A stretch of 55,322 nucleotides of DNA from Candidatus Amesbacteria bacterium (GTDB lineage: Bacteria > Patescibacteriota > Microgenomatia > CAZETR01 > Amesbacteraceae), in contig DAHXMV010000006.1 of the NCBI GenBank assembly GCA_027371535.1, positions 1 to 55,322 of the forward strand. Reading direction: 5' to 3'. This document shows, piece by piece, positions 16,462 through 25,118 of the stretch. A program made the translations under genes and the position numbers. A model generated the notes under the pieces. The model saw nothing but the letters and a program-made list of their open reading frames with translations, ran no database searches and had not been told where the DNA came from. The stretch's first letter is position 1. Each line of letters begins with the position of its first letter.

Positions 16462-17133
16462 ATGGCTGTGAAAAGAATCAGGACCAAAAAAACGGTTTTA
16501 CCAGAACCAATGGAAGTTACGGAAACACCACCGGAAGTTCAAGAAGCTCCCAAAAAGAAAGTCAGCGGGTGGGTGATTGGAGTTATCCTGGCAGTAATAC
16601 TGGTAGGGTTTTTCTGGTACAAAACAAATTCCTGGCCGATTGTGGCGATGGTAGGCATGAGACCGATTACAAGATTTGAAGTAGATCAGGCTTTATTCAA
16701 GCAGGGAGGTAAGACACAGGTTGAAGATATAATTACGCAGACTTTAATTGAAAACGAACTGAAGAAAAATAATATAAACATCAGCAGCGCGGAAGTTGAA
16801 AGTAAAATAAATGATATAAAAGCCCAGCTGGGAAAAACTACCAAGATTGAGGATGTGCTGGCCCAGAGAGGCATGACCATGGATGACTTTAAAAAACAAC
16901 TGGCTTTGCAGATGGGCATAGAACAATTGTTGAAGAATAAAGTGACAGTAACCGACCAGGAAATTGCAGACTATATTACGCAGAATAAACAGTATATGAG
17001 CTCGGCTACCCCAGAAGCCCAGAAAGCCGAAGCGACACAGGCAGTGCAAATGAACAAGCTGCAGACTGAAGTAAATAACTGGATAACCCAGTTAAGGAAT
17101 GCCAGCAAAATCTGGAGAGCTCCGGGGGTTTAA
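16462..17133 (+). CDS. SurA N-terminal domain / PrsA-like foldase (no parvulin core)
   Basis: TM helix followed by IVAMVGMRPITRFEV...ISSAEVE...VTVTDQEIADY...WITQLRNASKI. Confidence 0.8.
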   Translation: MAVKRIRTKKTVLPEPMEVTETPPEVQEAPKKKVSGWVIGVILAVILVGFFWYKTNSWPIVAMVGMRPITRFEVDQALFKQGGKTQVEDIITQTLIENELKKNNINISSAEVESKINDIKAQLGKTTKIEDVLAQRGMTMDDFKKQLALQMGIEQLLKNKVTVTDQEIADYITQNKQYMSSATPEAQKAEATQAVQMNKLQTEVNNWITQLRNASKIWRAPGV

Positions 17134-19298
17134 GACAATTTCAGAGAGTAACGTTCGCGGGAAGAGCGGAGAATTTTGTCAAGATTCTGATTAGATGATT
17201 TGTGCGGAGGCAGAGTGGTAGCCAGAAACGGCGGCGAAACCGCCCCGTCGATGGTCATTTTGACGGCAATCTGGTGTTTTTGCAGGGAAACCAGATTGGC
17301 GGCGGTAAACGCCCCGCCAAATTCGGCTTCCATGACCCGGGCATCTTCGGAGCCCAGGACAAAACAGACGGTGGTGCCGGCGTTGCCGAAAATGGCCTTT
17401 TGGATGGGTTCGGTAATCTGGGCGATATACTGGTTGGCCAGAATCAGGCCGAGCTTAAATTTGCGGGCCTCGGAAAGAATTTTAATAAAGCTTTCGGTGG
17501 CGAAATTCTGAAACTCATCGACGTAGAGGAAAAATTCACGCCGGGCATCTTTTGGCTGGTCCACCCGGTTCATGGCGGCCAGCTGCAGCTTGGTGATAAA
17601 CATGGCACCCAGAAGAGCCGAATTATCCTCCCCCAATTTACCCTGGGACAGGTTGGCAATTAAGATTTTGCCCTGATTTAGAATCTGATCCAGGTCGATG
17701 GATGAAGCCGAATGGGAAATCAGATTATGAATCAGGGGGGAATTGACGAACTGGCCGACTTTATTCAGGATACTGGAAATCTGCTCCGCGCGGGTCTTTT
17801 CGTCCAATTTATCGTATTCGTTTTTCCAGAAGGAAATCAGCTGATCGTTTTTAATCCGGGAATAAATAGTCTTTCTGAATGCGGAATCGGTGAGCATTTT
17901 AATGACATCGGGCAGGGTGGAGCCGGGAATCTGGGTCAGCGTCAATAAAGTATTGCGCAAAATGTATTCCAGACGGGGGCCCCAGGAATGTCCGTAGAGT
18001 TTATGGAAAATGGCCACGATGCCGGAGGTAACCAGCTCCGACTGGTCGGGATTGGCCACTTCCAGAATATTTAAGGAAATGGGGTGCTCCTTGTCCGCCG
18101 GATTGAAATAAACCACATCGTTGATGCGGTGGGAAGGCACATAATTTAACAAGGCTTCGGCGCTGTCGCCATGGGGATCGATGAAGGCTACTCCCCTGCC
18201 CTTTTTAAAATCGTCGACGGCCATATTTTCCAGCAAGGTGGATTTGCCGGTGCCGGACTTACCCAGGATATACATATGTCGTAAGCGGTCTTCGGTTTTA
18301 ATGCCGAAATTGAGCTGCTGGTTGTGAAAGGTGGTATTGGCAAAGAAGTTGATATCACGGTTGGGATCGGGGGCGTTTTCGGCAGGTTTTGTGTAAACCG
18401 GCAGGTTTTCCGGGGCTTCGGAGAAGGAAGCGGAGACGGACCAGGCAACGTTGGGGATTTTGGTGTAGATGCCGGGAAGATGCCAAAGGGATGATAATTC
18501 CATGACATTTAAGACCGTAGGAGGCACCAGGAGGCTTTTGAAGGGTTTACGGCCCATAATACAACCAAGGAGAGTACTTTTATCCCAGGGAAGGATTTGA
18601 GCAGCCTGGAGGCTGTTGCCGTCGGGGCGGTTTAAAACGGAAATAGCTCCCCGCAAGTCGTAAAGCAGGCGCTGACTGGTGGCGGCAAAGTGAATGCTGA
18701 CACCGACTAACGGGTAGGACAATTTGTCTTCGACGATCTTTTTTTGGGGAATGGGCGGGTCTTTGACCAGATGCCCGGCTTCGTCGTAATGCTGGGTGGG
18801 CTGGATATAGGTATAGGCTTTTCTGACAAGGGATCTGGCAGCCGGGGTCAGCACAAACTGGACCAGGATCCGGTCATCAGGACCGGCTTTACTGAGGACG
18901 CCCATCAAGGGCAGCATGGGGTCGACTTCCTTGTAATCGGCATAATCCCTCAACGGATAAAAAGCGGCAAAGGACTGGCGGATGAGCATGGTATACGGCC
19001 TGAAATTCCAGGTGGCCAGATAATCTTTGATTTCGGACATGACTACGTCGGGATAGGTGGCCAGAAGCTGGGACTGGACAAAGGTGGTCAGGTGGTCGGG
19101 AAAGACGATGGCAAAGACGACCTGGCCGTTGACGATACTCACCTCCAGAGAAATATAAACAGGCTCAATGTGGGATAAACGGCCCAAAAAGTCATCGGCT
19201 TTGGTGATTTTGGCCAGGGAGGCGAGAACCTGGGACATCTGTTCGGGGGTGTTGTCCGATTCACGGGGAACCCTCAATGAAAGGACTTTAAGAGCCAT
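17130..19298 (-). CDS. VirD4/TrwB/HerA-like P-loop ATPase (T4SS DNA-binding domain family)
   Basis: RHMYILGKSGTGKS Walker A, FIDPHGD, LYVDEFQNF Walker B, SEARKF...LANQY. Confidence 0.9.
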   Translation of the reverse strand: MALKVLSLRVPRESDNTPEQMSQVLASLAKITKADDFLGRLSHIEPVYISLEVSIVNGQVVFAIVFPDHLTTFVQSQLLATYPDVVMSEIKDYLATWNFRPYTMLIRQSFAAFYPLRDYADYKEVDPMLPLMGVLSKAGPDDRILVQFVLTPAARSLVRKAYTYIQPTQHYDEAGHLVKDPPIPQKKIVEDKLSYPLVGVSIHFAATSQRLLYDLRGAISVLNRPDGNSLQAAQILPWDKSTLLGCIMGRKPFKSLLVPPTVLNVMELSSLWHLPGIYTKIPNVAWSVSASFSEAPENLPVYTKPAENAPDPNRDINFFANTTFHNQQLNFGIKTEDRLRHMYILGKSGTGKSTLLENMAVDDFKKGRGVAFIDPHGDSAEALLNYVPSHRINDVVYFNPADKEHPISLNILEVANPDQSELVTSGIVAIFHKLYGHSWGPRLEYILRNTLLTLTQIPGSTLPDVIKMLTDSAFRKTIYSRIKNDQLISFWKNEYDKLDEKTRAEQISSILNKVGQFVNSPLIHNLISHSASSIDLDQILNQGKILIANLSQGKLGEDNSALLGAMFITKLQLAAMNRVDQPKDARREFFLYVDEFQNFATESFIKILSEARKFKLGLILANQYIAQITEPIQKAIFGNAGTTVCFVLGSEDARVMEAEFGGAFTAANLVSLQKHQIAVKMTIDGAVSPPFLATTLPPHKSSNQNLDKILRSSRERYSLKLS

Positions 19299-19388
19299 AA
19301 TTCTAGTCTAGCATAAAGTATGGGAAATCTGACGGATCCAAATAATATTTACGGCAGGGTGAAGAGAACAGTAATAAGCCTATAACTA

Positions 19389-19419
19389 TTGACATTAGCC
19401 CTATAGTATGATATACATT
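19389..19419 (+). promoter_or_regulatory. Putative sigma70 promoter for the structured-RNA/ORF unit
   Basis: TTGACA at 19389-19394. Candidate -10 boxes are TATACA (19412) or TACATT (19414); the exact -10 is ambiguous. Confidence 0.5.
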
Positions 19420-19424
19420 ATGCA

Positions 19425-19860
19425 GACTTTAAGTTTAACTTCAAAAGCGAAGATATTAACTTAGTAAGTCTTTCTAGTTTTACTAGCACTAAATCTAGCA
19501 CTTTAAAAACAGAGAGAAAAGAGAGTATTCTATTACCTGAAATTTGCGTGGCGTATCGAGTCCCGCCGGCTACGGCTTTTGTCGTTGTGCTAGGCGACAG
19601 GGGCTTTAAATCAATAAGACCGACGGGATTCAATACGTCACGTAAATTTTGGGAGAGAGTTTTTTAGGGATTATTACAATAACCCATCAGGGTTATTGAT
19701 AAATATTGGTAGAAACGGGGACGCGCTTTTTTTATTACCCAGGAGTTCATGCCGGACGGCAATCTTGGATGTCCTAAAACTTATTTAGGGATTGACTGAA
19801 ATCACCATAGTGATTACAGGACCTAGAAAAAGATTAGGAAATAAAAAACGGAGATAAGAA
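19425..19860 (+). ncRNA. Highly structured 5' leader / candidate ncRNA domain
   Basis: 30-bp stem 19540-19569/19620-19649 (3 G-U, 2 C-A), capped by the G-U-rich hairpin 19575-19604. Further hairpins at 19425-19470, 19677-19698, 19739-19768, 19772-19790 and 19800-19815. Confidence 0.6.
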
Positions 19861-19862
19861 AA

Positions 19863-20648
19863 ATGAAGACTAAGAAGTTTGTTTTGTTGATGGCTTTGGT
19901 TATAGCCCTTTCGAGCGCATTTGCCCTCCCAGCGGCTATTAATCATTTGCCAGGTATTGTGCAAACCCCTATCGCCAACGTTATAAACGTTGTCGCAAAC
20001 GCCTGTTCTATGAACTGTACATCTTGGGATGGTACAGCTTCCTGGGGCGCGGGCGATTATCGCATGATGTTGGATGGTAACTCAGTTTGGAGTGGGACGT
20101 TGACAGACAATGAAAAGAAAGAAGGAACGTTCACTTTGAACTGTGGTTGGCACGAATGGTCATGGGAAATGAAGGTAAAGGATAAAGAAGGAAATGAGAA
20201 ATGGGAGAGTAAGGCCGGTGGAAAATTTGAATGCAAGTGCGCGTCAGCTACGCCGACAAACACAATGCCTCCTACCGAGACTTTACCCCCTACCTCAACC
20301 TCTACTACTAAACCTTCCATTACCCCGTCCTTAACAAGCTCACCAACAATCACTTTAACCTTTACTCCAACCTTAACGGTTACTCCATCAATCACCGCTA
20401 CACCTACCAACACAAGCACTGCTACACCAACACTACCTGGACCGACCCCTGTATCTACCACACCTGCGCCCACCACTGTGGTTACTACTGTTGTAGTTCC
20501 TACTACCCCCGTGGTTACCACTCCGGCGCCGACGACTCCTCCACATCCCCGAATCACCCCAAACCCTGGCTCCAGTAATGGTGCAAGTGACCAACCAAAG
20601 AATATATTGGATTGGCTCAGGTTCTTTTGGAACTTGATTTTCGGATAA
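19863..20648 (+). CDS. Secreted protein: signal peptide, small Trp/Cys-rich domain, long Pro/Thr linker, amphipathic C-terminal helix
   Basis: GGAG SD at 19850-19853. MKTKKFVLLMALVIALSSAFA signal, TPT repeats, ends ILDWLRFFWNLIFG. Confidence 0.85.
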   Translation: MKTKKFVLLMALVIALSSAFALPAAINHLPGIVQTPIANVINVVANACSMNCTSWDGTASWGAGDYRMMLDGNSVWSGTLTDNEKKEGTFTLNCGWHEWSWEMKVKDKEGNEKWESKAGGKFECKCASATPTNTMPPTETLPPTSTSTTKPSITPSLTSSPTITLTFTPTLTVTPSITATPTNTSTATPTLPGPTPVSTTPAPTTVVTTVVVPTTPVVTTPAPTTPPHPRITPNPGSSNGASDQPKNILDWLRFFWNLIFG

Positions 20649-20660
20649 AACCTATCTAGA

Positions 20661-20997
20661 CCACGACCGGAGGGCATAACCCTACCTAGCACTTCCCAAA
20701 CGGGAAACTGCCCTCCGGTCTGGATGAATAACTTTCTTTCTCTCCCTACGTGACGCAAGTCATTAGGACGATACCTAGAACTTTTAGGTATTTTGCAGGT
20801 AACATTCGCTGTTATTTTTGCGGATTGCCTGATGTTTTATGGTATTAAGAGGGAGATGTGTGTTTTGTTTTGTGTGTTTTGTTGATTTTGGGATTTTTCT
20901 GGGGAATTAGCTTTTTTTGCAATTATTGATTTTTGATCATTTTTTTAAACCCCCCCAGCCCAATCAGCAACAACCCGCATTACAGCACCATCTCCCT
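20661..20997 (+). ncRNA. Highly structured 3' trailer
   Basis: Perfect 12-bp stem 20665-20676/20709-20720, GCAA-tetraloop hairpin 20745-20767, hairpin 20771-20791, long imperfect hairpin 20850-20997. Confidence 0.55.
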
Positions 20998-21077
20998 AAG
21001 TTTTTTACAGATGAAGTCTGTACTGATGAGGCGGCCCCACTACGCTGAAGCTACGCGGGGTAAACCGAAAAAACTTA
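20997..21077 (+). ncRNA. Type III hammerhead ribozyme candidate
   Basis: Stem III taagtttt(20997-21004)/aaaactta(21070-21077). NUH=UUU at 21003-21005. Stem I tacag(21006-10)/ctgta(21018-22). CUGAUGA core 21023-21029. G10.1-C11.1 closing stem II (21030/21066). GAAA 21067-21070. Confidence 0.75.
21035..21064. repeat. REP-like miniature palindromic element inside hammerhead stem II
   Basis: ccccactacgctgaagctacgcggggtaaa is an imperfect palindrome with two GTAG motifs on the minus strand and resembles 23636-23674. Confidence 0.65.
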
Positions 21078-21168
21078 ACAATAAAGTTAACTTATACAAA
21101 ATATAAATATTTTGTATATCCATGAGTTTTAAAGCAGAACTCATGGCTATAGGTTATAATAAACGACC

Positions 21169-23430
21169 ATGAATAATGTTGAACACGGACAATACCAATA
21201 TTTAAAGCGGCAGGAAAAACTGACCGCGGTTCCGCAGGTCGAGGACAAATACTCTGACGAGGCTAAAAAGGCCTGGATGAGAAAGGCGGCTGCACAACAT
21301 AAACTGGAGATGTTTTCAGATGTAAATGTGGACCCGGACAAAAAGACTGTAAGTGCCGAAGAGATGATGAACGCCACCCTGGAAGGTTTAAAAGAAGCTG
21401 AAATTAAGAGACAACATTCTAATACCGATAAAGGGAAAGCCTATTGGAAGAATGTAGAAAGAGGCCTGAAAATCAAAAAGACATGGCTGGAAAAAAGCAT
21501 GCCCAAGAACCAATTTACTAATGAAGAACTAAGGCAACCTTTAATTGTAGAAACCGAAAAACAAACAGAAACCTTATTACTGCCTAAAAGTATTCCGGAA
21601 CCGATAGCTGAAAATAAACCTGTTTTGACCAGATTCCAGATGTTAGTTAAGGGAATCAGGCAAAAAGGCGACGAAATATTGCAAAAATTAAGAGTAGAAC
21701 CGGATATTGTTGACAGCGATTCTGTATTAGAAAGCTGGAGAGCAAGTGAAATTTCAGAAAAGAAACAAAAGAAAAACATTTTAAAGGAAATTGCTTATGG
21801 TACTGGTATTGTCACTACGATTGCAACTGCGGCATTAGGTATTTATGCGTGGTTAAACAGAAAATCCGCAGTATCTCCAGTTGAGATTGCCAAAGCTTTA
21901 AATACTCCTATACCATTGGAAACAACCATAAATACTCCTGTCCCGGCAAATACGATTACGGTGACCCCTTCTGTGATACCATCTGCCACGGAGACCGTAA
22001 CGCCAAAGCCATCTGTGACTCCCGAGAAGCCCACTAATTCTTATGAAATATCAGTTGACGGTAAAACTATTGATCTGACCAAATCACTAGCTATAGTTTT
22101 TTCCCAGAATCTGTTAAATGCTGCAAGTGTAAAATCTCAGATTCCTATATTTACCCAACCTTTTGTTATCAATACAGAAGCCGATTATTTGAAAGCGCCT
22201 AATACAATGGGGGTGAATGAAAAATCAATAAATACAAACCACTGGAAAGAATATCCGTGGCAGGCTTCCGTGATGAAATCCTTTTACAACAGTGATTTTG
22301 TAATGAGTCTGGAGAGCGGGCATTTAAATCAAACAGTTCCAAAAACAATGAATTCCGATTGGCAGAAAGCCTTTAATGAAACTTTTCCCAAGGCCAGTTT
22401 GGATAAACCGCAAGCATTTGATATGCCGGCCCAGCCTTTGGTTGATCTGGCCAATACACTACCAAACCATATTGAAAGAATATCAGTAAATGGAAAATCG
22501 AGCGATATGACTGTATATGAATTACCAAACCAGCAATTTAAAATACAAGTGGACGGAACTCCGTGGACTATAAAAAGTATGAGAAAAGTAAGTCTGGATG
22601 TGTGGAATCAAACCTGCGGGAATACCGATAAAGGCTGGTATTGTGCGTTGGATCAGGTAAATATTCCGCAACCTGCAGAGACCACAATCACTATTCCCAC
22701 ATGCATGGATTTTAAAAACGGTGAATACGCAAACCGATTAATAGTTGAAATAACTCCGGATAAATCAATAAGTCTCGACAAGTTTGCACCTGAAGTTATA
22801 AATGATCCTATTTTTAATAAAGGAGTGCGTCAGGCAGTGTTAATTAACGGCTACCAATTTACCGGCAATAAAAGTGGCTTTGTAAATTATTTGAAAAGTT
22901 CAAATCTGTTTGATGAATGGGATAAGCTGGTAATAGATAATTTAATTACTAATAATACAAATAATTTTCCTGATGGGAAAATGACCGGTATTCAGTGTGT
23001 AGGTTGGGCCGGATTGAGAACCGGACCAGAAAGCCCGATGTATTTTGGCGGAGATATAAAGGCAGACGGTACTAAAATAAAAGGACCCGGAGAGGCTGTT
23101 CCGGATAGCGTTAAGAAAGCTGCAAATCAAAATTATTTGTACACGGAGACTGAAGGTAACAGAAAATGGATAACGGGAAATGTTGATCTGCACATGGTGA
23201 AAAAGGGAGATGTAATTGTGGAATGGAGCGATGACCCCAATTTTTCAGCCGGTCATATTATCTATGTTGAAAATATTATTTCTGATAGCAAAGGCAATGT
23301 GATGGTAATTTTATCCGAAGCTAATAATAAAAATAATCCCGGTCAGGTGTCTTATTCCGTAATTAGTGGAATTTCGTTAGAAAGTTCCCTGAATAATAAG
23401 AGTTTGGCTTTGGTGACTAATCGTGGATAA
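21169..23430 (+). CDS. Single-pass membrane protein with sortase-like and CHAP-like domains
   Basis: TM near aa 207-228 and a P/T linker. SGH (H385)...TITIPTC (C512)...NRLIV (R523). GIQCVGW (C610)...AGHIIYVE (H696)...LSEAN (E717). Confidence 0.7.
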   Translation: MNNVEHGQYQYLKRQEKLTAVPQVEDKYSDEAKKAWMRKAAAQHKLEMFSDVNVDPDKKTVSAEEMMNATLEGLKEAEIKRQHSNTDKGKAYWKNVERGLKIKKTWLEKSMPKNQFTNEELRQPLIVETEKQTETLLLPKSIPEPIAENKPVLTRFQMLVKGIRQKGDEILQKLRVEPDIVDSDSVLESWRASEISEKKQKKNILKEIAYGTGIVTTIATAALGIYAWLNRKSAVSPVEIAKALNTPIPLETTINTPVPANTITVTPSVIPSATETVTPKPSVTPEKPTNSYEISVDGKTIDLTKSLAIVFSQNLLNAASVKSQIPIFTQPFVINTEADYLKAPNTMGVNEKSINTNHWKEYPWQASVMKSFYNSDFVMSLESGHLNQTVPKTMNSDWQKAFNETFPKASLDKPQAFDMPAQPLVDLANTLPNHIERISVNGKSSDMTVYELPNQQFKIQVDGTPWTIKSMRKVSLDVWNQTCGNTDKGWYCALDQVNIPQPAETTITIPTCMDFKNGEYANRLIVEITPDKSISLDKFAPEVINDPIFNKGVRQAVLINGYQFTGNKSGFVNYLKSSNLFDEWDKLVIDNLITNNTNNFPDGKMTGIQCVGWAGLRTGPESPMYFGGDIKADGTKIKGPGEAVPDSVKKAANQNYLYTETEGNRKWITGNVDLHMVKKGDVIVEWSDDPNFSAGHIIYVENIISDSKGNVMVILSEANNKNNPGQVSYSVISGISLESSLNNKSLALVTNRG

Positions 23431-23464: not shown

Positions 23465-23536
23465 GCCCTTGTAGCTCAATGGACAGAGCAAATCCCTTCT
23501 AAGGATAAGATGGAGGTTCGATTCCCCCCAGGGGCA
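23465..23536 (+). tRNA. tRNA-Arg(TCT)
   Basis: Acceptor gcccttg/caggggc, anticodon arm atcc-cttctaa-ggat, GGTTCGATTCC T arm. Confidence 0.93.
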
Positions 23537-24057: not shown

Positions 24058-24129
24058 GGGTTCGTAGCTCAATGGCAGAGCAGCTCCCTCTTAAGGAGAC
24101 GGTTGTGGGTTCGACTCCCACCGGACCCA
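24058..24129 (+). tRNA. tRNA-Lys(CTT)
   Basis: Acceptor gggttcg/cggaccc, anticodon arm ctcc-ctcttaa-ggag, GGTTCGACTCC T arm. Confidence 0.95.
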
Positions 24130-25046: not shown

Positions 25047-25118
25047 TGCGGGGTCGTCTAATGGTAGGACTCCAGACTTTGGATCTGGCTATTCTTGGTT
25101 CGAATCCAAGCCCCGCAG
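25047..25118 (+). tRNA. tRNA-Gln(TTG)
   Basis: Acceptor tgcgggg/ccccgca, anticodon arm ccaga-ctttgga-tctgg, T arm cttgg-ttcgaat-ccaag. Confidence 0.96.

Follow-up and report, generated by a model that had tools for sequence, protein, structure and literature searches.

The locus and its genes

We analysed a folded unit of about 1.65 kb (positions 19,425 to 21,080) in a contig of 55,322 nucleotides (nt) from a Candidatus Amesbacteria bacterium (assembly GCA_027371535.1, contig DAHXMV010000006.1), and the whole of this contig is called the window here. The unit carries one open reading frame (ORF) for a protein with a signal-peptide-like start, set between a long leader and a long trailer, and ends in a hammerhead ribozyme. 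The genome comprises 1.02 Mb in 43 contigs, is 90% complete and has the window as its contig 40. Upstream of the unit lies a divergent gene (17130-19298, - strand), whose product hits, in Pfam, both the DUF87/HerA central domain and the ATPase domain of type IV secretion coupling proteins (TrwB/TraG), and downstream lies the next + strand gene (21169-23430, 753 amino acids, aa). A single ORF is found between the two, with 564 nt of intergenic DNA upstream and 520 nt downstream of it and no convincing ORF in either. An earlier reading made from the letters alone (the sequence-only reading) had described a 261-aa ORF with a long, hairpin-dense leader and trailer, and both the ORF (19863-20648) and the strong folds around it were confirmed.

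The features of the unit and its promoter are the following.

19389-19417, + strand: sigma-70-type promoter, with the -35 element TTGACA (19389-94), a 17-nt spacer and the extended -10 element TGA-TATACA (19409-17)
19425-19470, + strand: P1 hairpin, with helices 19425-29/19466-70, 19430-35/19458-63 and 19439-42/19449-52
19483-89 and 19495-501, + strand: two CUAGCAC boxes, recognised by comparison across units
19511-19530, + strand: purine tract with variable bases, the 5' strand of the proposed long-range leader-trailer helix
19536-19653, + strand: P2 long hairpin, with helices 19536-56/19633-53, 19558-65/19624-31 and 19574-86/19593-605
19654-19849, + strand: remaining leader hairpins (19659-64/19711-16, 19677-85/19690-98, 19739-44/19763-68, 19772-77/19834-39), poorly conserved between units
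19850-53, + strand: likely ribosome-binding site GGAG, upstream of the cargo ORF
19863-20648, + strand: cargo ORF, 261 aa, with a signal-peptide-like N-terminus and a Thr/Pro-rich middle or linker
20661-20723, + strand: T1 hairpin right after the stop codon, with perfect arms of 12 base pairs (bp), 20665-76/20709-20
20726-20747, + strand: pyrimidine tract with variable bases, the 3' strand of the proposed long-range helix
20745-67 and 20770-846, + strand: two local trailer hairpins of the minimum-energy fold
20850-20997, + strand: long trailer hairpin, its 5' arm rich in G/U and its 3' arm in C/A, whose last base is the first of hammerhead stem III
20997-21077, + strand: type III hammerhead, with stem III at 20997-21004/21070-77 and stem I at 21006-12/21016-22
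21023-29 and 21067-70, + strand: hammerhead core CUGAUGA and GAAA, with stem II from G21030 to C21066
21035-21060, + strand: 26-nt hairpin inserted in stem II, also present in stem II of the hammerhead of units L073/L100

The window is ordinary chromosome, with glycolysis genes, UvrABC, LexA and RuvC, and a Pfam scan of 45 proteins from its 55 kb revealed no transposase, integrase, recombinase or reverse transcriptase. The 261-aa protein matched no Pfam family and a protein search retrieved itself alone; for the 753-aa protein, the pattern and tblastn route found no relative in species-representative genomes. The unit is single-copy in its own genome, and a DNA search of the family with the whole unit returned short pieces alone (the box region and the stem II hairpin).

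The architecture recurs around different genes

Orthologs of the divergent ATPase gene, with 58-78% identity, were found in 11 related genomes of the family, and the units of the relatives were found by reading the DNA upstream of these orthologs. At 8 of the 11 ortholog loci the same elements followed in order: a TTGACA-N17-TGnTATnnT promoter, a 5' hairpin, a CUAGCAC box with purines, a long hairpin, a signal-peptide ORF, a trailer of 260-550 nt and a hammerhead. The remaining three had promoter and box and then the contig end, a contig that was too short, and a different neighbourhood with the unit missing. A pattern scan of metagenome contigs gave 65 loci, of which 12 had promoter and box; these yielded three new units and five copies of known ones. 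The total was 12 distinct units, from Candidatus Amesbacteria genomes and metagenome contigs, and counts out of 12 below refer to them.

The cargo proteins of the 12 units were mostly unrelated and shared at most one short common stretch. Eight had no Pfam family, one had a PKD domain and three had weak sub-threshold matches; with their signal peptides, C-terminal membrane anchors and, in one, the PKD domain, they look extracellular. In the copies L039 and L094, leader and trailer end were 99.5-100% identical while the ORF was 93% identical with insertions and deletions, and therefore the ORF evolves faster than its flanks. L073 and L100, again copies of one unit, have unequal numbers of a 54-nt repeat within the ORF.

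Comparison thus establishes a modular architecture in which homologous leaders and trailers co-occur around different cargo ORFs, a check that had been proposed together with the sequence-only reading, and it supports that reading's single long + strand RNA unit with a ribozyme-defined 3' end. Two of its further suggestions did not hold. A large non-coding RNA does not agree with ORFs that are real and open, with signal peptides and with a PKD domain in one, and a mobile element does not agree with a unit that is single-copy, lies by the same ATPase gene in 8 of 11 loci and has no mobility enzyme among the 45 window proteins. The unit is best read as a structured messenger RNA (mRNA), neither a large non-coding RNA class nor a mobile element.

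Promoter and leader modules

The TTGACA-N17-TG-n-TATnnT promoter lies at an equal distance upstream of the box in the related units, and its position predicts a transcription start at about 19424-19426. In 11 of 12 units the predicted transcript opens with a hairpin, which begins at nt 1-2 and differs in sequence between units. The CUAGCAC box occurs in 12/12 units (as CUGGCAC in L041), in two copies in 7/12 when the CUAGCAU copy of L039 is counted, and is single in its own genome, as CTAGCACNTTAAAAA. The purines that follow the box in related units resemble UUAAAAAGAGAG, and the purine tract keeps the same offset from the box in most units.

The 30-bp leader stem described earlier is P2, which is present in the minimum-energy fold; across units, the corresponding hairpin is 72-156 nt long. 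The apical hexaloop of P2, GUGCUA (19587-92), together with G19593 is the exact complement of the box, and a GUGCUA or GUGCCA apical loop tops the long hairpin in 11 modules across units. L041 has CUGGCAC in both boxes and GUGCCAG in the loop, which is one compensatory event. A contact between box and P2 loop is likely from these complementary sequences, with a covariation that is thin (the one event in L041). A DNA-binding protein that recognises these 7 bp whichever way they face would be an equally good fit, but for the constant hairpin-loop setting.

In L040, L042, L043, L044 and L073 the GUGCUA-loop hairpin stands just behind the hammerhead and not in the leader. As a separate observation, a long hairpin topped by a GUGCUAG(C) loop, its 3' strand a conserved GGGCUUC, was seen about 30-300 nt past the hammerhead in L042 (at oriented positions ~2205-2290), L073, L040, L043, L044, L141 and L142; in L042 and L073 it lacks an ORF and is directly followed by tRNA genes.

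Folding strength, strand and trailer hairpins

Folding was compared with shuffled controls, as had been proposed earlier. The leader (19425-19862) folded at -137.5 kcal/mol on the + strand (z = -7.64) and at -110.4 kcal/mol on the - strand (z = -5.11), and the trailer (20649-21080) at -150.1 kcal/mol (z = -7.39) and -131.2 kcal/mol (z = -4.26), respectively. Therefore the dense structure is real and the + strand is preferred, in leader and trailer alike, as the sequence-only reading had held from the G-U pairs. The preference extends to the related units, with the + strand folding better than the - strand in 12/12 leaders (mean -24.9 kcal/mol per 300 nt) and in 10/12 trailers (mean -14.3), and this comparison argues for RNA rather than DNA as the level at which the unit acts.

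In the trailer, the top of T1 carries CCUAGCAC (20685-92), which is complementary to the P2 loop (an 8-nt match to 19587-94). The box within T1 was seen in the window only; a stable hairpin after the stop codon occurs in most other units, as judged by reading the trailers (unscored). The fold of 175 nt that contains the long trailer hairpin has 59 pairs, 6 of them G-U, and an energy of -57.4 on the + strand versus -42.0 on the - strand. A long hairpin abuts the ribozyme in 10/12 units, and L043 and L044 have several shorter ones; the window and the two closest units give a consensus hairpin of 41 pairs, 10 of them with a double change.

The 5' arm of the long trailer hairpin (20844-20886) also resembles the start of the ORF (19863-19891), with 77% identity over 26 nt and 93% over 15 nt, and it starts with a GGAG-like sequence, as if it came from a degenerate gene start.

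At gathering score, Rfam 15 found tRNAs alone in the window and in 20 related loci, and no family in the unit, and a permissive scan of 19250-21250 (E up to 10) gave four chance-level matches only. The earlier failure to match the unit to RNase P, tmRNA, SRP, 6S or group I/II introns was thus borne out, and GOLLD, ROOL, OLE and HEARO, as far as they are in Rfam 15, gave no covariance-model match either.

The hammerhead ribozyme

The hammerhead that had been noticed at 20997 is real. We base this on comparative evidence: a hammerhead lies at the same place in 12 units, with an invariant core and differing stems. A hand parse found all core bases, the pairs G10.1-C11.1 and A15.1-U16.1 and the N-U-H triplet with a non-G at position 17 in 12/12 units, while the stems differ in sequence. 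In the window, stem I has 7 bp, stem III 8 bp and stem II 2 bp with an extended hairpin; stems I and II are closed by loops and stem III is open, which is the type III topology. Position 17 is U21005, in the triplet UUU, and cleavage is predicted between 21005 and 21006.

A covariance model trained on six relatives, with the window left out, found 20997-21078 at 37.7 bits (E = 8.5e-10 in 150 kb). Across 26 aligned hammerheads, 92.7% of 508 cells pair versus 63.3% in shuffles (0/500 reach 92.7%), 20 of the 22 model pairs change on both sides, and controls with a slid partner pair at 33-47%. The alignment of the 26 was fitted to the model and leans towards the structure, and the hand parse of the 12 units is independent of it. 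With the family model, hammerheads were found in 12/28 genomes of the order, in a scan that misses the own genome and G006, both of which are carriers, and in 13/151 sampled genomes of the class. The Rfam hammerhead family RF00008 had no match in the 2-kb or whole-window scans, and 0/20 related loci reached its cut-off; its sub-threshold matches to simpler relatives scored 40.3, 34 and 31.5 bits.

The 26-nt hairpin in stem II recurs in unrelated places of four other family genomes and is single-copy in its own. Its consensus is CCCYAC-UWCGCURAAGCUWCG-YRGGG, often followed by UAAA, and it was seen in L003 (~1500-1528), L005 (~1501-1532), L008 (~1509-1530) and L009 (~1501-1526 on the - strand, and 1781-1799), once within another conserved-looking stem and twice beside tRNA genes. 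Its appearance suggests a small module with a structural or protein-binding role, or else a hairpin that is mobile. In L003 it is inserted between the two sides of a further motif, GGACCAGUCAUC...GCCUUUGGCGA, which form the two sides of a stem in L003 (~1480-1580) and in the L042 leader (~480-560); Rfam had no match for it in either locus, and it is possibly another unannotated small RNA motif.

A plainer arrangement was observed at locus L140 (contig 4 of genome G025, - strand), where three hammerheads, at oriented positions ~1709, 5168 and 8806, flank blocks of about three membrane or secreted-protein genes without a CUAGCAC box, downstream of a paralog of the secretion ATPase (33% identity). 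We regard this locus as a plainer ribozyme-punctuated operon in the same family of bacteria.

The type III hammerhead, the conserved folded ends and the exchangeable ORFs recall viroid-like and retrozyme RNAs, and in some relatives a unit is bracketed by two hammerheads, from which an RNA with ends fit for ligation would be set free. On these grounds the whole 1.65 kb might be a large structured or mobile RNA element (retroelement-like or circular) that merely carries an ORF. The window unit, however, owes its 5' end to a promoter and carries one hammerhead only, it is single-copy in conserved chromosomal synteny, no reverse transcriptase was found among the 45 window proteins scanned, and no large-RNA or intron family of Rfam was matched. 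The ligase RtcB was not found in the 90%-complete genome, and enzymatic circularisation was therefore dropped. We consider such a large structured or mobile RNA element very improbable, and continue with the structured mRNA.

Proposed pairing between leader and trailer

The sequence-only reading had built a nested pair of helices from TTACCTG (19533-39) with CAGGTAA (20796-802) and from GGGAGAGA (19651-58) with TCTCTCCC (20739-46). The strings exist at these positions, and they are ordinary: the two helices of 7-8 bp are 2 of the 23 maximal perfect leader-trailer complements of at least 7 nt. All their strands lie within or abut hairpins of the local minimum-energy folds, so that they compete with local structures (the long stem has 19536-56 at its base, and a local hairpin is made up of 20792-98/20818-24 and 20799-804/20810-15), and no counterparts were seen in the other 11 units, as judged by reading (unscored). 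The multi-way junction drawn on the two helices is unsupported, and one hairpin assigned to it (20771-91) lies outside the minimum-energy fold.

What had been listed as an alternative helix (19512-30/20726-44) proved to be present as an inverted repeat, at conserved positions and with cognate-specific complementarity. The inverted repeat is 74% complementary, and the helix would be formed by the purine tract and the bases that follow it (19511-30) with the pyrimidine tract and the bases that precede it (20726-47), at a duplex energy of about -20 to -22 kcal/mol in the window. The same two places are complementary in most units, and the sequences beside the tracts differ between units. Leader and trailer of the window share 37 complementary 7-mers versus 17.5 +/- 5.4 in dinucleotide shuffles of the trailer (0/300 reach 37).

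RNAduplex on whole leaders and trailers gave meaningless full-length duplexes, as did permissive local alignment, and both were replaced by stricter local scores, longest perfect matches and concatenated folds. For the longest complement, the 87 nt after the box were compared with the first 220 nt of the trailer in the 12 units. The longest perfect complement averaged 9.4 nt in cognate pairs versus 7.5 in non-cognate pairs (standard deviation 1.1), with 0/200,000 permutations reaching the cognate sum, and a complement of at least 9 nt was present in 10/12 cognate pairs versus 18% of non-cognate pairs. The gain from joint folding of leader and trailer was -12.6 kcal/mol for cognate versus -7.9 for non-cognate pairs (0/200,000 permutations). 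Helix energies were -20.7 to -31.3 kcal/mol in 11/12 units, and the same tract against the ribosome-binding region gave -7.6 to -16.7; a further unit, which starts right behind the hammerhead of L043, again shows such a helix (6 + 10 bp) in equivalent places. The pyrimidine tract was also considered as an anti-Shine-Dalgarno element of the icaR type and was rejected, as its pairing is much stronger with the upstream tract than with the region of ribosome binding.

Comparison between units thus demonstrates that the leader-trailer complementarity is cognate-specific. It suggests that complementary segments of the two untranslated regions (UTRs) were kept through evolution, weakly or not at all in 2 of the 12 units, and that the UTRs appear to pair with each other in the RNA.

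Weighing the unit as a clamped mRNA

We read the stretch as one transcription unit of a Candidatus Amesbacteria-like genome (~1 Mb), for which the most likely mechanism is a ribozyme-ended, UTR-clamped structured mRNA of a fast-evolving secreted or surface protein, and we assign a probability of roughly 0.6 to unit and mechanism jointly. The following results weigh against it. No RNA run is listed as containing the stretch, and it was not found in two metatranscriptome runs from the same study as the DNA run that contains it. The RF00008 match to 20998-21076 had 20.7 bits (E = 0.017 in a 106-nt search) at a cut-off of 48.5, a low score that we ascribe to the 33-nt insert in stem II; stem II itself has two pairs only beside the core and then an internal loop. 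For seven long trailer hairpins aligned with MAFFT, RNAalifold gave 0 pairs, because the sequences are too diverged to align. The remaining points concern the helix. Two looser cognate scores reached p = 0.003 and 0.007 only; L041 has no convincing helix (-10.5 kcal/mol) and that of L039 is weak; the helix is built largely on promiscuous, low-complexity purine and pyrimidine tracts; L043/L044 and L040/L073 share helix sequences, which leaves about eight independent versions rather than twelve; and in the isolated leader the purine tract has an alternative local pairing (19516-23/19726-33).

A rival reading takes leader and trailer for independently folded UTR modules that never touch, such as a stabilising or regulatory element at the 5' side and one for processing and stability at the 3' side, with the complementarity a by-product of low-complexity tracts and common descent. 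The tracts pair with almost any partner, so that non-cognate scores are high, local alternative pairings exist, two units do without a good helix, and the relatedness of the units means that the permutation tests overstate independence. Cognate pairs nevertheless beat non-cognate pairs in four measures, the matches reach into non-tract bases that differ between units, and the place of the helix is constant relative to the box and T1 and is seen again in the extra unit. Independent modules are, in our judgement, an unlikely account, though one to be taken seriously beside the clamped mRNA.

A last point against the clamped mRNA comes from the composition of the helices: when transitions are scored alike, they contain 10 G-U and 13 A-C pairs, and since G-U is not above A-C, the helix alone does not favour RNA over DNA. 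This agrees with a reading at the DNA level, in which the tracts are inverted repeats, a recombinase flips the segment from P2 through the ORF to T1 and so turns the surface protein on or off (phase variation), and the hammerhead and local hairpins are separate matters. Repeats that stay complementary amid sequence drift are expected if recombination keeps them alike, and a variable surface protein is a classic target of phase variation. The 45 window proteins, however, include no recombinase, integrase or transposase (a distant recombinase is possible), and the variable part of the repeats differs between related genomes, whereas the site of a conserved recombinase would have to be conserved too. 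All five metagenome copies, which belong to four units, run collinear with those in the genomes, in contigs that drop rare variants; one DNA run with the stretch, of which contigs only were searched, had no alternative joint; and the repeats are bulged, with 9-11 nt perfect at most. Inversion therefore seems to us distinctly improbable, and less probable than modules that merely fold side by side.

Proposed mechanism of the clamped mRNA

By analogy with gene-flanking hammerheads (PMC3088659), hbs (PMC5737220) and icaR (PMC3868564), transcription would begin at about 19425, and the nascent RNA would fold into P1, the box-P2 module and the other hairpins. After synthesis of the ORF and trailer, the hammerhead would fold and cut itself at 21005/21006 in the cell. 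The upstream product would be an mRNA with a 438-nt leader and a 349-nt trailer, a hairpin at its 5' end, and the long hairpin with a tail of ~8 nt and a 2',3'-cyclic phosphate at its 3' end, which would resemble the product of an intrinsic terminator. The segment 19511-30 would pair with 20726-47 as a clamp of 15-20 bp, with the coding region looped between P2 and T1. Such an arrangement may serve to shield the mRNA of an abundant surface protein from exo- and endonucleases at both ends and to uncouple it from the downstream genes.

The downstream RNA would keep a 5'-hydroxyl and most of the ribozyme and would run into the 753-aa gene and the tRNAs from 23465, where RNase P would cut again. 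Three tRNA genes (23465-23536, 24058-24129, 25047-25118) follow the 753-aa gene on the same strand, the first of them 35 nt past its stop codon, and tRNAs were also observed downstream of the units in L037, L040, L041, L042, L061, L065, L073 and L100. The whole region, from the unit through the tRNAs, may be one long transcript cut by the hammerhead and RNase P.

A wider extension of the clamped mRNA, which we offer tentatively and think unlikely as a whole, is a reusable cassette, in which fixed modules (the box, the GUGCUA-loop hairpin, the purine/pyrimidine clamp, the long 3' hairpin and the hammerhead) around any surface-protein gene at the locus would give an mRNA that is closed non-covalently and terminated by the ribozyme. 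The 5' end would be placed by the ribozyme through the clamp and the box-loop contacts, and cutting, stability or translation could be switched together. Hammerheads and RNase P would then cut long transcripts into units, as a general mode of surface-protein expression.

Comparison with known systems

A previous survey described gene-flanking type III hammerheads in bacterial and prophage transcripts and suggested, as their role, the cutting of long transcripts of phages to mRNAs of gene length (Perreault et al. 2011, PMC3088659). The hammerhead here shares with them the catalytic core, the three-stem fold and the position between genes on one strand, and the three hammerheads of G025 that flank membrane-protein gene blocks are akin to those cases. 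The present one differs in that it is chromosomal, in a lineage of the candidate phyla radiation and with no recognisable prophage, and in that a single hammerhead is tied to fixed leader and trailer modules, abuts a long hairpin and has a 26-nt insert in stem II. A literature search for hammerheads or ribozymes linked to the candidate phyla radiation, Patescibacteria or Microgenomates found none.

In Bacillus subtilis, a helix of 14 bp joining the 5' UTR to the 3' UTR of the hbs mRNA was linked to protection from ribonuclease (Braun et al. 2017, PMC5737220), and the proposed long-range helix is of similar size and likewise lies between the UTRs of one highly structured mRNA. The hbs mRNA, in contrast, has a normal terminator at its end and no ribozyme, and its pairing overlaps an RNase Y site, of which none is known in the present unit; the evidence here comes from comparison only. 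In icaR of Staphylococcus aureus, UTR pairing hits the Shine-Dalgarno sequence, and it both stops translation and attracts RNase III (Ruiz de los Mozos et al. 2013, PMC3868564). There, too, a pyrimidine-rich motif of the 3' UTR meets a purine-rich sequence of the 5' UTR in the same mRNA; here, in contrast, the partner lies ~330 nt upstream of the start codon and the ribosome-binding region pairs weakly. The unit resembles invertons in having short inverted repeats that bracket a segment controlling a variable surface protein, but it has no recombinase nearby, no second orientation was seen, its repeats are unconserved and it lies inside a strand-biased folded RNA.

The unit therefore combines features of known kinds, gene-flanking hammerheads and UTR-UTR pairing, as a conserved modular mRNA architecture, which belongs to one family of the candidate phyla radiation and surrounds hypervariable surface-protein genes. 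A bacterial hammerhead with a fixed place in a conserved, chromosomal, single-gene architecture leads to specific predictions: a cut at 21005/21006, a contact of 19511-30 with 20726-47, and effects on mRNA half-life. Bacteria of the candidate phyla radiation with minimal genomes would thus keep elaborate RNA-level control around their fastest-evolving surface proteins, which are probably central to the encounter between epibiont and host.

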